Virus record (IMG/VR): IMGVR_UViG_2737471853_000013
Span: 1-3,593 of that record
Length of the DNA: 3,593 nucleotides
Direction: 5' to 3' (one strand)
Source of the DNA: a virus
Lineage: Duplodnaviria; Heunggongvirae; Uroviricota; Caudoviricetes
Shown here: positions 1 through 3,593 of the stretch, piece by piece
Numbering within the stretch: position 1 is the first letter of the stretch
Layout: each line of letters begins with the position of its first letter
Position numbers and translations under genes: made by a program
Notes under the pieces: generated by a model
What the model was told of the DNA's origin: nothing
Seen by the model: only the letters and a program-made list of their open reading frames with translations
Database searches by the model: none

Positions 1-681
1 ATGACACCGGACATTATCCTGCAGCGTACCGGGATCGACGTGAGAGCTGTCGAACAGGGGGATGATGCATGGCACAAATTACGGCTCGGCGTCATCACCG
101 CTTCAGAAGTTCACAACGTGATAGCAAAGCCCCGCTCAGGAAAGAAGTGGCCTGACATGAAAATGTCCTACTTCCACACCCTGCTGGCTGAGGTTTGCAC
201 CGGTGTGGCTCCGGAAGTTAATGCTAAGGCGCTGGCCTGGGGAAAACAGTACGAGAACGACGCCAGAACCCTGTTTGAATTCACTTCCGGCGTGAATGTT
301 ACTGAATCCCCGATCATCTATCGCGACGAAAGTATGCGCACCGCCTGCTCTCCCGATGGTTTATGCAGTGATGGCAACGGCCTTGAACTGAAATGCCCGT
401 TTACCTCCCGGGATTTCATGAAGTTCCGGCTCGGTGGTTTCGAGGCCATAAAGTCGGCTTACATGGCCCAGGTGCAGTACAGCATGTGGGTGACGCGAAA
501 AGATGCCTGGTACTTTGCCAACTATGACCCGCGTATGAAGCGTGAAGGCCTGCATTATGTCGTGGTTGAGCGGGATGAAAAGTACATAGCGAGTTTTGAC
601 GAGATGGTGCCGGAGTTCATCGAAAAAATGGACGAGGCACTGGCTGAAATTGGTTTTGTATTTGGGGAGCAATGGCGATGA
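1..681 (+). CDS. exo: Lambda-type 5'-3' dsDNA exonuclease (Red-alpha / Exo), 226 aa
   Basis: Full-length ORF starting at window position 1 with ATG. The 226-aa translation matches the phage lambda Exo sequence as I recall it along its whole length ([31 protein letters not shown]...[15 protein letters not shown]), with the same length. The stop overlaps the next start in ATGA, as in lambda. Not confirmed by a search. Confidence 0.95.
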
Positions 682-860
682 CGCATCCTCACGATAATAT
701 CCGGGTAGGCGCGATTACTTTCGTCTACTCCGTTACAAAGCGAGGCTGGGTATTTCCCGGCCTTTCTGTTATCCGAAATCCACTGAAAGCACAGCGGCTG
801 GCTGAGGAGATAAATAATAAACGAGGGGCTGTATGCACAAAGCATCTCCTGTTGAGTTAA
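678..860 (+). CDS. orf60a: Small lambdoid early-region protein, lambda orf60a-like (60 aa from ATG 678; alternative ATG at 672 gives 62 aa)
   Basis: ORF immediately after exo. ATG 678 overlaps the exo TGA stop (ATGA, 4-nt overlap), reproducing the lambda exo/orf60a junction and the 60-aa length as I recall them. No functional knowledge. Confidence 0.7.
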
Positions 861-1024
861 GAACGAGTATCGAGATGGCACATAGCCTCGCTCAAATTGG
901 AGTCAGGTTTGTGCCAATACCAGTAGAAACAGACGAAGAATTTCATACGTTAGCCGCATCCCTTTCACAAAAGCTGGAAATGATGGTGGCGAAAGCAGAA
1001 GCAGATGAGAGAGACCAGGTATGA
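833..1024 (+). CDS. orf63: Small lambdoid early-region protein, lambda orf63-like, 63 aa
   Basis: 192-nt ORF overlapping the previous gene by 28 nt in a different frame. Length and position match lambda orf63 as I recall the lambda map. Acidic C-terminal half (ETDEEFH...KAEADERDQV). Confidence 0.7.
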   Translation: MHKASPVELRTSIEMAHSLAQIGVRFVPIPVETDEEFHTLAASLSQKLEMMVAKAEADERDQV

Positions 1025-1316
1025 CAACCACGGAATGCATTTTTCTGGCAGCGGGCTTCATATTTTGTGTGCTTATGCTTGCCGACATGGGACTTGTTCA
1101 ATGACACCTCAGCAAGAAAACGCCCTTCGCAGCATTGCCCGTCTGGCTAACTCTGAAATCAAAAAAGCCAGACAGCAGTTTCCGGATAAAAACGTCGATG
1201 ACATTTGCCGTAGCGTACTGAAGAAGCACCGCGAAACGGTAACGCTGATGGGATTCACACCGACTCATTTAAGTCTGGCGATCGGCATGTTAAACGGCGT
1301 CTTTAAGGAGCGATGA
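1005..1316 (+). CDS. Small lambdoid early-region protein, orf61-like position; 103 aa from ATG 1005 (in-frame alternative starts at 1035 and 1101)
   Basis: ORF whose ATG at 1005 overlaps the orf63-like stop by 20 nt, the same overlap I recall for lambda orf63/orf61. A GAGAGAGA purine run lies upstream of 1005. The product is longer than lambda's 61 aa, so the start or the C-terminal region is uncertain. Its stop overlaps a strong AAGGAG motif. Confidence 0.55.
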   Translation: MRETRYDNHGMHFSGSGLHILCAYACRHGTCSMTPQQENALRSIARLANSEIKKARQQFPDKNVDDICRSVLKKHRETVTLMGFTPTHLSLAIGMLNGVFKER

Positions 1317-1337
1317 ACATGAAAAGCAAAATCATCA

Positions 1338-1362
1338 GGGAGCTACAGGCTCCTTTTTTATT
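1338..1362 (+). terminator. Intrinsic-terminator-like hairpin (GGAGC / 5-nt loop / GCTCC) followed by TTTTTTATT
   Basis: Seen in sequence: gggagc-tacag-gctcc then a run of six T. It lies inside a 25-codon sORF (1319..1396) and upstream of the TraR-like gene. Confidence 0.45.
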
Positions 1363-1414
1363 GTTCGCATTCACCCTCAAGCGTATTAACCAATAATTCA
1401 GGGATTAATGGAAG

Positions 1415-1636
1415 ATGGCAGACATCATTGATTCAGCATCAGAAATTGAAGAATTACAGCGCAACACAGCAATAAAAATGCGCCGCCTGAACCACCAGGC
1501 TATATCTGCCACTCATTGTTGTGAGTGTGGCGATCCCATAGATGAACGAAGACGCCTGGTCGTTCAGGGTTGTCGGACTTGTGCAAGTTGCCAGGAGGAT
1601 CTGGAGCTTATCAGTAAACAGAGAGGTTCGAAGTGA
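1415..1636 (+). CDS. TraR/DksA-family C4 zinc-finger protein (RNA polymerase secondary-channel regulator family), 73 aa
   Basis: Translation contains the family's C-x2-C ... C-x2-C zinc-finger spacing (CCECGDPIDERRRLVVQGCRTCASC) on a 73-aa scaffold. Lambda carries a 73-aa TraR-like ORF in the same region (my recall). The stop overlaps the next gene's GTG (GTGA). Confidence 0.85.
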   Translation: MADIIDSASEIEELQRNTAIKMRRLNHQAISATHCCECGDPIDERRRLVVQGCRTCASCQEDLELISKQRGSK

Positions 1637-2049
1637 GCGAAATTAACTCTCAGGCACTGCGTGAGGCGGCAGTAGCAATTGAAACAGTAGCAACGCCTCA
1701 AAAATTGCTGGCATTTCGTATGAAAGTCACACCTCAGGTTGTGCTGGCACTGCTGGATGAACGGGAAAGAAACCAGCAATACATCAAACGCCGCGACCAA
1801 GAGAACGAGGATATTGCGTTAACGGTAGGGAAGTTGCGCGTTGAGCTTGAGGCAGAAAAACAGCGGGCAAAGGATCTGTTTATGGAAAATGCTCGGCTTA
1901 AGTCAGGTATAGCCGGTCTGATACACCTCGGTATTCGATATGCAGATGTTGAGGTCATGAGAATTGCTGGAGATGCCCAGCTTTCTACCCCATGCACTGA
2001 CAGCATCATAAACAGCATTGCAACAGGCATTCGCATCAAAGGAGAGTGA
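1633..2049 (+). CDS. ea22: Ea22-like lambdoid early protein, short variant (138 aa), GTG start
   Basis: GTG start at 1633 overlapping the upstream stop, with GAGAGG about 6 nt upstream. The N-terminus (MSEINSQALREAA...LLDERERNQQYIKRRDQENEDIA) and C-terminal ...GIRIKGE resemble lambda Ea22 as I recall it. A predicted coiled-coil-like stretch (LTVGKLRVELEAEKQRAKDLFMENARLK) is present. Shorter than lambda Ea22 (about 182 aa). Confidence 0.65.
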   Translation: MSEINSQALREAAVAIETVATPQKLLAFRMKVTPQVVLALLDERERNQQYIKRRDQENEDIALTVGKLRVELEAEKQRAKDLFMENARLKSGIAGLIHLGIRYADVEVMRIAGDAQLSTPCTDSIINSIATGIRIKGE

Positions 2050-2050
2050 T

Positions 2051-2719
2051 ATGAGCGCTATAACCAAAGAACGTATCAAATTATTCATTAAAAATCCGCT
2101 TGATAACGGACTTACTCGTGGCGAACAAATGGAACTGGCACGAATTGCACTGGCATCACTGGAACGCGAACAGATTCGCCACGAGCATGCCAAATGGTCT
2201 GACTCCACATTTGGCTGCGTTGGCCCCATTGGTCCGCTGAAACATCTCTCAAAAGAGGCACTGGAAGCCGCAGCCGAACCAGACGATCTTAGCGAGTGGG
2301 CTGATATGCAGTTTCTGTTGTGGGATGCACAGCGCCGTGCTGGCATCAGCGATGCTGAAATTACCGCTGCTATGGAAGATAAATTGAAGATCAACATGGA
2401 GCGCCAGTGGCCTGAGCCAAAAGATGGTGAGCCTCGCTTGCACATTAAAGAACCCGGCAACTATCCGGTAACTCCGGATGGTTGGATAAGCTGTAGTGAG
2501 CGAATGCCAGAAATGGGAGAGCGACAATGCTATGTGTTAGCAGCTGACTTTAAAAACAACTACCCACCAAACATCCCCAACACTCAGGTCGGCGTATATG
2601 GCGACTGGTTTAATGATGGCAATCCAACTTGGGATGACGGTGATGGCGAAGACCTGTATCTCAAAGAGGTAACCCACTGGATGCCTCTACCAGAACCGCC
2701 TCGATTAAAGGAGCTATAA
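2051..2719 (+). CDS. Phage accessory protein: N-terminal MazG-like/DUF550-type predicted dATP/dGTP pyrophosphohydrolase domain fused to a C-terminal DUF551 domain (222 aa from ATG 2051)
   Basis: ATG 2051 lies 6 nt after AGGAG (2040..2044) and 1 nt after the Ea22-like stop; the longer track ORF from 2018 has no ribosome-binding site. The N-terminal half has an all-alpha, acidic-residue-rich pattern (HEHAKWSDSTFG...EALEAAAEPDDLSEWADMQFLLWDAQRR...) typical of MazG/DUF550 NTP-PPase-like phage proteins. The C-terminus ends in the DUF551 hallmark ...VTHWMPLPEPP. Domain calls are from memory of the families. Confidence 0.8.
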   Translation: MSAITKERIKLFIKNPLDNGLTRGEQMELARIALASLEREQIRHEHAKWSDSTFGCVGPIGPLKHLSKEALEAAAEPDDLSEWADMQFLLWDAQRRAGISDAEITAAMEDKLKINMERQWPEPKDGEPRLHIKEPGNYPVTPDGWISCSERMPEMGERQCYVLAADFKNNYPPNIPNTQVGVYGDWFNDGNPTWDDGDGEDLYLKEVTHWMPLPEPPRLKEL

Positions 2720-2815
2720 TAGTGAACTATTATATCTATTTGTATTAAAAGAGTTTTTATAAAATAAATCTTCCAAAGCATGTAAAAACACTGTTAATCT
2801 TAACGTGTGTGAAAC
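2720..2815 (+). promoter_or_regulatory. Very AT-rich intergenic region; candidate promoter and/or nucleoid-protein binding region for the downstream moron gene
   Basis: Hand count gives about 21% G+C over 2721..2800, against roughly 50% in flanking genes. It contains several weak sigma70-like hexamers (for example TTGTAT at 2740 and TATAAAAT at 2758) but no pair with convincing spacing, so the exact promoter is not assigned. Confidence 0.3.
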
Positions 2816-2833
2816 GTGAAGAGAGGTGTTGAA

Positions 2834-3115
2834 ATGAGCATTCATGATTTGTGTGAAGATCAAGAGCAATGGGCTATGCAGACCCTTATGGGATCAGGAG
2901 TTCTTGCAAGGTGCAGAATCCATAACGATGTAATTTTAGACAGCGGAAATGATGCTTCTTCTGCTTATAAATTAGGAACTTACCTATATCAAAAAGATAA
3001 TAGCTGCAACTTATTCAATACTCTTACTGAAGCCCGCGACGCAATAAAGGATGCATATGAATCGTATTGTGGGATCGATGATTGCCCACAATGCTCAAAA
3101 TACATTGACGATTAA
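2834..3115 (+). CDS. ea8.5: Ea8.5-like small Cys/His-rich protein (93 aa), low-GC moron gene
   Basis: ATG 2834 is preceded by AGAGGTG (2822..2828) at 5 nt; the GTG at 2816 used by the track is less likely. Size (93 aa) and position between the Ea22 region and xis match lambda ea8.5 as I recall. Cys/His pattern (C..CRIH...C...YCGIDDCPQC) fits a zinc-binding fold. Hand-counted G+C is about 39%. Confidence 0.6.
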   Translation: MSIHDLCEDQEQWAMQTLMGSGVLARCRIHNDVILDSGNDASSAYKLGTYLYQKDNSCNLFNTLTEARDAIKDAYESYCGIDDCPQCSKYIDD

Positions 3116-3135
3116 TAATATGAACAAGTAACTAT

Positions 3136-3160
3136 CCTCGCACTCGCGGGGATTTCTTTT
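3136..3160 (+). terminator. Intrinsic terminator: 6-bp stem (CCTCGC/GCGGGG, one G-U pair), ACTC tetraloop, then ATTTCTTTT
   Basis: Seen in sequence 20 nt after the Ea8.5-like stop: stem 3136..3141 pairs with 3146..3151, followed by a U-rich tract. Confidence 0.5.
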
Positions 3161-3167
3161 ATCTGAA

Positions 3168-3190
3168 CTCGCTACGGCGGGTTTTGTTTT
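3168..3190 (+). terminator. Second hairpin plus U-tract element (CTCGC/GCGGG stem, then TTTTGTTTT); tandem terminator or structured leader
   Basis: Seen in sequence: 3168..3172 pairs with 3177..3181 (one G-U pair), followed by TTTTGTTTT, immediately upstream of the GGAGA ribosome-binding site of the 55-aa sORF. Confidence 0.35.
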
Positions 3191-3203
3191 ATGGAGATGA
3201 TAA

Positions 3204-3371
3204 ATGCACTTCCGAGTCACAGGTGAATGGAATGGAGAACCATTCAACAGAGTTATCGAAGCAGAGGACATCAACGACTGCTATAACCACTGGATGATAT
3301 GGGCGCAGATAGCGCATGCAGACGTAACCAATATTCGAATTGAAGAACTGAAAGAACACCAAGCCGCCTGA
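3204..3371 (+). CDS. Small hypothetical protein, 55 aa (MHFRVTGEWNGEPFNRVIEAEDINDCYNHWMIWAQIAHADVTNIRIEELKEHQAA)
   Basis: Not in the ORF track (below the size cut-off); found by reading. ATG 3204 has GGAGA (3193..3197) 6 nt upstream. The TGA stop lies in the loop of a strong terminator hairpin. Lambda has a similarly sized unnamed ORF between xis and ea8.5 (my recall, uncertain). Confidence 0.5.
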   Translation: MHFRVTGEWNGEPFNRVIEAEDINDCYNHWMIWAQIAHADVTNIRIEELKEHQAA

Positions 3372-3386
3372 TGGCGGTTTTTTATT
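3362..3386 (+). terminator. Intrinsic terminator: 7-bp stem (AGCCGCC/GGCGGTT), TGAT loop, then a T-run
   Basis: Seen in sequence: 3362..3368 pairs with 3373..3379, loop 3369..3372 contains the sORF stop codon, followed by T-rich 3378..3387. Confidence 0.6.
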
Positions 3387-3401
3387 TCCTGGAGAATTAA
3401 G

Positions 3402-3593
3402 ATGACCGATACCAGCCTGATTCCTGAGAAAGAAGTGATGAACAAGCTCGGTGTTTCATCACGTCAGACAATCTGGAACTATACCAAACGGCACGGATTT
3501 CCGAAGCCAGTCAGAACCCACCCCAAATCATACCTTCGTGAGGCTGTTGAAGGGTGGATTCTTAACGGTGGCGTTAATCAGAAATGCTCCTGA
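3402..3593 (+). CDS. xis: AlpA-family excisionase / phage transcriptional regulator (Xis-like), 63 aa
   Basis: ATG 3402 has GGAGA (3391..3395) 6 nt upstream. The translation has the AlpA/Xis winged-helix pattern (LGVSSRQTIWNYTKRHGFPKPV...REAVEGWI) and the expected position at the int-proximal end of the operon. It is not lambda-type Xis. The ORF is complete, with TGA at the window end. Confidence 0.85.
   Translation: MTDTSLIPEKEVMNKLGVSSRQTIWNYTKRHGFPKPVRTHPKSYLREAVEGWILNGGVNQKCS

Follow-up and report, generated by a model that had tools for sequence, protein, structure and literature searches.

What does it mean when a phage gene ends in the ribosome-binding site (RBS) of its neighbour? The question is raised by a 3593-base stretch of DNA (IMG/VR record IMGVR_UViG_2737471853_000013, positions 1 to 3,593; hereafter the window), which is the exo-to-xis segment of a lambdoid prophage in the orientation of pL transcription. 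Here an intact, GTG-started Ea22-like coding sequence (CDS) of 138 amino acids (aa), at 1633-2049 and like all features below on the + strand, ends with the peptide GIRIKGE, and a gene encoding a DUF550-DUF551 protein starts one base past its stop codon. The first-pass annotation read this as a recombination junction inside ea22, at which a single event introduced the DUF550-DUF551 gene, leaving behind an unusual, possibly neofunctionalised Ea22. We find that the last 24 nucleotides (nt) of the CDS, GGCATTCGCATCAAAGGAGAGTGA (2026-2049, encoding GIRIKGE and the stop codon), recur between many unrelated genes, and that the best explanation for them is a module boundary at the nucleotide level whose translation is incidental, not an Ea22-specific protein motif. 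As judged from sequence comparisons, the exchange point for the downstream gene is this terminal 24-mer and not a breakpoint internal to ea22. We consider it likely that the open reading frame (ORF) is a common Ea22 allele and that the 24-mer serves both as RBS and as recombination boundary.

A conserved 24-nt block at the end of ea22

Compared with phage lambda DNA, window positions 1-1860 match lambda 32028-30168 at 95.7%, positions 2026-2049 match lambda 29870-29847 at 24/24, and similarity is back at 3129-3383. The Ea22 C-terminal block and the block holding the DUF550-DUF551 and ea8.5-like genes are thus parted by a 24-nt island of identity. The DNA substituted relative to lambda spans ~1861 to 3128, so that the C-terminal part of Ea22 and the cargo gene appear as adjacent replacements, which would suit a single event that brought both and truncated Ea22. 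Moreover, the DUF550-DUF551 gene is most often paired with the C-terminal module of the window, in 6-7 of 9-12 cases (counts from IMG/VR, here and below, are among the matches listed). However, the lambda-identical island separates the two substituted blocks, the same C-terminal module pairs with 9 N-variable classes and precedes ~10 downstream genes, and the DUF550-DUF551 gene comes after at least three different Ea22 C-terminal modules. The N-variable patch of the window likewise occurs with at least five C-terminal modules, and the 95 unique contexts sort into 78 combinations of 12 N-variable, 26 C-terminal and 26 downstream classes. This independent pairing indicates that the cargo gene did not arrive as one unit with the C-terminal part; the assortment data largely refute the single event, which we regard as very unlikely.

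An exact search of IMG/VR with GGCATTCGCATCAAAGGAGAGTGA matches at least 119 DNA stretches, and the 124 exact copies have unrelated flanks on both sides. Their upstream ORFs fall into 15 C-terminal classes, most of them mutually unrelated, and a start codon lies one base past the stop in 120 of the 124 copies (110 ATG, 10 GTG), opening ~20 different genes. The remaining four have the lambda arrangement, in which no gene starts after the junction (TGA-GATCGG...), whereas the DUF550-DUF551 gene of the window starts one base later. The "fusion" of ea22 to the start signals of its neighbour is therefore the standard layout of such junctions and is found in hundreds of phages. In the GenBank phage set, ~320 records contain at least 80% of a 31-nt junction-spanning query, often two to three times per genome; they include Stx phages, Salmonella phages and HK620, whose hkaG/hkaF border is a near-identical junction (27/28 bases).

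The conserved block has sharp limits. When 62 unique GIRIKGE contexts, chosen without regard to the DNA of the tail, are compared pairwise, 893 of 1891 pairs (47%) are identical for exactly 24 nt leftward of the stop; rightward, identity breaks off at 0 nt or at 4-5 nt (N+ATG). Diversity at third codon positions is 0-0.03 in the tail, compared with a mean of ~0.15 (up to 0.6) in the conserved core of the gene. The tail is also found on ORFs that are not Ea22, including an ORF with an HNH-type motif (L089), a small ORF (L100) and an uncharacterised ORF (L007). In three loci (L007, L019 and L066), the junction occurs twice, 494 nt apart, with one ORF in between, and as a result of this bracketing the non-Ea22 ORF of L007 likewise terminates in GIRIKGE. 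The 494-nt cassette of L007 (3495-4012) is flanked by AACATTGGCATCAAAGGAGAGTGA on one side and the canonical 24-mer on the other. Thus the element is a nucleotide-conserved block with unrelated flanks in different phages, and the modules on its two sides assort independently (the 78 combinations in 95 contexts).

As the first-pass annotation had noticed, the last ea22 codons contain the RBS of the next gene: the Shine-Dalgarno (SD) sequence AAAGGAG (2038-2044) lies inside the K-G-E codons, followed by the stop-spacer-start TGA-T-ATG (2047-2053; TGA 2047-2049, T 2050, ATG 2051), with six bases between AGGAG and the ATG. The SD, complementary to the 16S 3' end, is thus within 5-9 nt of the start and inside the upstream ORF, and stop and start are a few bases apart. 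This stop-N-start layout is typical of coupled phage genes, and the 3' half of the 24-mer reads as a near-consensus SD, so we infer that it acts as RBS for whatever gene follows, with downstream translation probably coupled to that of ea22. The predicted RNA fold of window 1990-2090 is no better than that of shuffles (z=-0.41) and leaves the SD unpaired; in the absence of a predicted occluding structure, any coupling would go via re-initiation or proximity. A TTG at 2018 was considered as start of the downstream gene and dropped for ATG 2051, since that codon is preceded by the SD and is where the Prokaryotic Genome Annotation Pipeline (PGAP) begins the gene. Tail variants that alter the peptide keep or strengthen the SD, as in GIRINGGE from ...AACGGAGGTGAGTAG and GIRIKGGE from ...AAAGGAGGTGAGTAA, and many unrelated tail classes have an SD with an ATGA stop/start overlap instead.

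A short, mosaic ea22 allele

The Ea22 identity of the ORF is well supported. It runs unbroken from GTG to TGA, is GTG-started like lambda ea22, and has an SD-like GAGAGG (1621-1626) 6 nt upstream of the GTG. Pfam assigns it to PF13935 (Ead_Ea22; 77.3 bits against a cut-off of 27, E=2.2e-21) over residues 2-107 and profile positions 1-139, and in a BLASTP alignment with lambda Ea22 (182 aa), 54/78 positions are identical over residues 1-78, where the alignment stops. Both proteins end in GIRIKGE and hence in the terminal K/R-G-E tripeptide of the Ead/Ea22 family. The position of the gene is also that expected, at the end of the exo-xis block (orf60a, orf63, orf61, orf73, ea22) on the pL-transcribed strand and in lambda order. 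The description of a 138-aa Ea22 with the GIRIKGE tail and a middle and C-terminal segment different from lambda is therefore confirmed, and its "lambda-like N-terminus" holds for residues 1-13 and 34-73 but not for residues ~14-33, which are substituted.

Four parts precede the tail. An N-terminal cap (MSEINSQALREAA; 1633-1671) is common to lambda and most Ea22 variants. Next comes an N-terminal variable patch (residues ~14-34; approximately 1672-1734), which is unlike lambda and belongs to the shortest class seen, and then a conserved coiled-coil core (VLALLDERERNQQYIKRRDQENEDIALTVGKLRVELE; 1735-1857) that is ~95% identical to lambda DNA. The alternative C-terminal module (residues ~76-131; 1858-2025; roughly 58-60 residues in size) is unrelated to the lambda C-terminal domain. 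Mosaic breakpoints relative to lambda thus lie at ~1672, ~1735, ~1852-1860 (the right edge of the core) and 2025/2026. Recombination inside ea22, as proposed earlier, is borne out by these breakpoints, but the downstream gene appears to have been exchanged at the terminal 24-mer.

The exact 138-aa protein (P0001) occurs on at least 1000 public contigs, where it is named "ead/Ea22-like family protein", and a 100% match to the gene is present in at least 12 complete E. coli genomes. Among 5426 genomes, 27 contain at least 80% of the gene and 2534 contain parts of it; a copy in the Stx2a phage Stx2_EH2246 is 92.8% identical. An alignment of relatives shows this one C-terminal module behind many N-terminal inserts in proteins of 138-232 aa, and in one protein (P0060) the whole lambda N-terminal half is joined to it. 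In the IMG/VR sample of Ea22 loci, which was picked by the N-terminal half or the core and not by the tail, at least 70 unique proteins have a recognisable N-terminal cap, with lengths of 55-316 aa and a median of 183. The window protein is thus not the unusual Ea22 it had been thought to be. Judged from these comparisons, 1633-2049 is a short allele of ea22, a mosaic early gene of lambdoid phages; it is intact and widespread, and represents one of many combinations in circulation.

Loci from a scan of public genome contigs were left out of these statistics, since they are mostly phage lambda itself in unrelated taxa. Lambda-type ea22 (67-70% match over residues 1-78) is found in assemblies of taxa that include Streptomyces, Bacillus, Shewanella, Pseudomonas, Prevotella and Kingella (L124-L155), and some of these contigs are ~48.4-48.5 kb, the size of the lambda genome, so they look like lambda DNA contamination. 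Similarly, the record MW057783.1, "Campylobacter phage CJLB-4" (48,361 bp), contains an "ea22 protein" with a lambda-type junction, which suggests a lambda-like sequence under an unexpected host name. In O145:H28 and Stx2_EH2246 prophages, two Ea22-like genes follow one another, and it is the second that has the window-type C-terminal module (L320 2500-3539; L321 1851-2914); unequal crossing-over between tandem Ea22 cores could be a source of new N-terminal/C-terminal combinations.

Could the ORF instead be a pseudogene that has decayed and lost its C-terminal end? In E. coli AL.H8, PGAP marks the identical sequence as a partial pseudogene ("incomplete; missing C-terminus"), and the protein is without the globular C-terminal domain of lambda Ea22. 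However, the ORF is intact from GTG to TGA in both the window and AL.H8, it keeps its tail and junction, and it is annotated as a complete 138-aa protein on the contigs counted above. The C-terminal module is nearly invariant across many N-terminal contexts, with a ratio of nonsynonymous to synonymous polymorphism (pN/pS) of 0.19 among 10 unique DNA versions, and 8 of 11 variable sites are third codon positions. With neither a broken frame nor relaxed constraint, decay is extremely unlikely. The ORF is thus a genuine, common Ea22 allele, and the RefSeq partial-pseudogene record of the identical sequence is misleading. In AL.H8, partial-pseudogene calls fall on two genes, the Ea22-like one and, in its 5' part, the DUF550-DUF551 gene (L002 6046-6279 and 6419-6544, equal to window 1678-1911 and 2051-2176), while both ORFs are intact and their translations match those of the window; the calls look like an annotation artefact from mosaic proteins.

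The structure predicted for the 138-aa protein is mostly helical. An AlphaFold2 (AF2) monomer model, built from a shallow alignment of 15 relatives with the lambda sequence left out, has two short helices (6-18 and 22-31) followed by one long helix, 34-114. Its per-residue confidence (pLDDT) is 87-96 over residues 20-90 (93-96 in the core), low past residue 100 and below 50 for residues 134-138. A crude heptad count finds a single register from residues ~36 to 105 that crosses the breakpoint between core and C-terminal module. Together, helix and register give the protein the central coiled coil of the Ead/Ea22 family, the result that the first-pass annotation had called for checking. In the C-terminal module the model has no confidently folded domain, and phmmer of the 138-aa protein against PDB gives no match at E<=1; as a control, lambda Ea22 matches 8DSX at 1.2e-51 through its residues 102-182. 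The alpha/beta dimeric C-terminal domain of lambda-type Ea22 (lambda 102-182) is accordingly missing from the window protein. PHROGs families matching the 138-aa protein are all of "unknown function", and several match just parts of it, reflecting its mosaicism.

From the model, the heptad register and the pN/pS value, we read this allele as a functional, nearly "coiled-coil only" Ea22 in which the C-terminal module mostly extends the helix. What is published on the Ea22 of lambda and of Stx phages makes it probable, by analogy, that the gene is transcribed from pL and that its product is an oligomeric coiled-coil protein favouring lysogeny. The pro-lysogenic effect and tetrameric state come from experiments on the lambda and Stx-phage proteins (PMC7093339, PMC10834534), and the lambda C-terminal domain by itself is insufficient for pro-lysogenic activity (PMC10834534).

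Recombination boundary, translation signal or peptide

If the 24-mer works as we propose, it would supply the SD (AAAGGAG) and the stop-N-start, so that any downstream gene gets translated. As a short block of perfect identity, it would also allow homologous recombination of lambdoid phages to swap the downstream accessory genes and, independently of these, the upstream C-terminal modules. Crossovers inside the 24-mer are suggested by its sharp limits together with its length, which matches the minimal efficient pairing segment reported for Red-beta (23-27 bp, compared with 31-34 bp for RecA; PMC3945230); both exo (window 1-681) and bet are encoded by the phage, just upstream. A more specific proposal, which we advance tentatively and hold to be slightly less probable than its opposite, is that GGCATTCGCATCAAAGGAGAGTGA is a dedicated translated cassette-exchange linker of Red-beta length, serving a post-ea22 accessory slot in lambdoid and P22-like phages, bracketing tandem cassettes and stamping GIRIKGE on upstream ORFs.

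Short conserved boundary sequences have been proposed before as foci of lambdoid recombination (Susskind & Botstein 1978 and Clark et al. 2001, the latter with seven such boundaries, as cited in PMC3029335). To the extent described there, they resemble the window element in forming a short conserved border with unrelated, freely assorting flanks; unlike them, the window element lies inside a coding region, is translated (GIRIKGE/"+GE") and holds the SD of the next gene. Our reading therefore fits a known idea, and what it adds is modest: that GIRIKGE/"+GE" is a translated boundary with the RBS of the next gene. Ea22 is known to be mosaic, and all Ea22 proteins are described as ending in K/R-G-E "of unknown significance" (PMC7093339 section 13; PMC10834534); the peptide string IRIKGE has no mention in the literature searched, and a paper on co-transfer (PMC9836094) mentions neither ea22 nor boundaries.

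The junction might instead be kept for translation only; modules would then be exchanged elsewhere, at longer homologies, or through illegitimate recombination, and only products in which the junction is restored would survive selection. SD-bearing 3' ends and ATGA overlaps are general in the operon and in other tail classes, and most phage mosaic joints are without identifiable boundary sequences (PMC3029335), both of which are what this explanation leads one to expect. It does not account for the 12 nt ahead of the SD, which are equally invariant though translation does not need them, nor for an identity block that ends sharply at 24 nt in nearly half of the pairs. The agreement of this length with the Red-beta pairing segment in a phage with exo and bet, and the cassettes flanked by two junction copies, also argue against it, and we consider it unlikely.

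Selection on the peptide itself, for example as a C-terminal interaction or degradation signal, with the SD incidental, is a further alternative. The heptapeptide is invariant in most family members, "+GE" is kept across Ea22 proteins with unrelated C-terminal parts (PMC7093339), and the half of the 24-mer that is not SD is conserved too. However, the near-invariance of synonymous sites is not predicted by peptide selection alone, and the tail occurs on ORFs that are not Ea22. Moreover, variants change the peptide (K to N, or an extra G) yet a strong SD stays, identity breaks off precisely at the edge of the 24-mer to the left and at N-ATG to the right, and the AF2 tail is of low confidence and probably disordered. 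Peptide selection is thus decidedly unlikely as the reason for the conserved block.

Several points weigh against a common Ea22 allele that ends in an RBS and recombination boundary. Only AAAGGAGAG is needed for the SD, and the equally frozen 5' half (GGCATTCGCATC) is without translational explanation; its conservation could come from the peptide or another function rather than from recombination homology. Low diversity in the tail is also expected from repeated recent sharing, and the test does not separate selection from recombination. RBS use, translational coupling and crossover in the 24-mer are each deduced from layout and conservation. The pN/pS estimate covers 10 sequences only, and the IMG/VR samples are redundant and mostly from Escherichia, Shigella and Salmonella prophages. 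Since the AF2 model is a monomer from a shallow alignment with low confidence past residue 100, a small C-terminal domain, either folded or dependent on oligomerisation, could still exist. We nevertheless prefer recombination homology as the reason why GGCATTCGCATC is frozen.

Read as boundary and RBS, the 24-mer would explain the published "+GE" motif as a nucleotide-level footprint, an RBS plus a recombination linker, and structural or functional work on Ea22 should then not assume a protein motif there. If the dedicated linker is real, nature would have provided at this locus a well-delimited example on which to test the old "linker" model of how phage modules evolve.

The accessory slot, related phages and neighbouring genes

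In lambdoid prophages, those of Stx phages included, the junction is the landmark of a clearly delimited variable slot, consistent with the description of ea22 as closing the conserved exo-xis block, after which a variable gene set comes (PMC8614690). The DUF550-DUF551 gene is one of ~20 genes found in this post-ea22 slot. Its contents include a dATP/dGTP pyrophosphohydrolase-like gene, a queuine tRNA-ribosyltransferase-like gene, DUF551 proteins, a ClpX-type zinc finger and many genes of unknown function. One frequent class (D7) is a 251-aa protein with a PHROG match to "queuine tRNA-ribosyltransferase" (E=2e-103), and Pfam gives no match for most genes of the downstream slot. The slot seems to be enriched for nucleotide- and DNA-modification and host-takeover genes. 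It is also a compact natural system to ask whether 24 bp of identity suffices for Red-mediated module shuffling. By analogy only, the slot can be compared with integron cassettes, in that a short sequence repeats on either side of varied ORFs that have no promoter of their own and are expressed from one upstream; unlike an integron, it is without integrase or attC structure, its junction has no significant fold, and exchange would be homologous (Red or RecA), not site-specific.

Relatives of the window gene differ from it in distinct ways. Lambda Ea22 (PDB 8DSX) shares its position after orf73, the GTG start with the GTGA overlap, a nearly identical cap and coiled-coil core, and the identical last 24 nt with GIRIKGE; it differs in residues ~14-33 and ~76-131 and in having the alpha/beta dimeric domain. 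The Ea22 variants V1-V3 of Stx phages and enterohaemorrhagic E. coli are likewise mosaic, with a shared N-terminal segment, a coiled coil and a K/R-G-E end but C-terminal regions that are unrelated (PMC10834534, PMC7093339). Compared with these, the window allele has the shortest N-terminal insert and is without their 63-aa segment, and DUF551, which is fused to Ea22 in V2, is encoded by a separate downstream gene in the window. P22 EaD, HK620 hkaG, Gally EaD and PhiR12_4 Ea22 belong to the same Pfam family, with differing N-terminal inserts and neighbour genes; Gally EaD and PhiR12_4 Ea22 have the C-terminal module of the window, at 91-93% identity over residues 28-138.

The genes around ea22 follow the lambda pattern up to its core. 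The window starts with exo (1-681, from the ORF list and a Pfam reading of the window), followed by orf60a (DUF1317 by Pfam; 672-860), orf63 (DUF1382 by Pfam; 833-1024), an orf61-like gene (1101-1316) and an orf73 homologue (1415-1636). The last of these has a TraR/DksA C4 zinc finger (PF01258, E=1.6e-8), is nearly identical to lambda at the DNA level, and is the last conserved gene ahead of ea22, its TGA overlapping the ea22 GTG (AAGTGAGC). After ea22 come the DUF550-DUF551 gene (2051-2719; 222 aa; PF04447, a dATP/dGTP pyrophosphohydrolase domain, E=5.5e-42, and PF04448, E=2.9e-20), an ea8.5-like gene (2834-3115), orf55 (3204-3371) and an AlpA-type excisionase-like gene (3402-3593). The same arrangement is found in E. 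coli AL.H8, at 99.7% identity over window 1-3383, where the locus sits downstream of N, cIII, kil, gam and bet and adjoins torS.

The end of the DUF550-DUF551 gene (window 2692-2745) also has an SD-like AAAGGAG (…CGATTAAAGGAGCTATAATAG), which is followed by an 8-codon GTG ORF only, and this may be a vestigial junction of the 24-mer kind; related DUF551 genes have PPQEV… tails containing AGGAGGTGA. The region from 2700 to 3128, comprising the spacer after this gene and the ea8.5-like gene, is AT-rich (33-38% GC, compared with ~48-54% elsewhere) and looks like a separately acquired module. Similarity to lambda restarts at 3129, just ahead of two terminator-like hairpins (3134-3153 and 3165-3184), and identity to both lambda and E. 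coli AL.H8 ends at 3383, directly after another such hairpin (3361-3380); the AlpA-type excisionase-like gene beyond it is part of a different integration module. Between orf63 and orf61, at 1021-1104, lies a hydrophobic 27-codon ORF (MTTTECIFLAAGFIFCVLMLADMGLVQ) with an ATGA overlap at each end, which may be one of the small peptides of the lambda exo-xis region that were detected via ribosome profiling (mentioned in PMC8614690).

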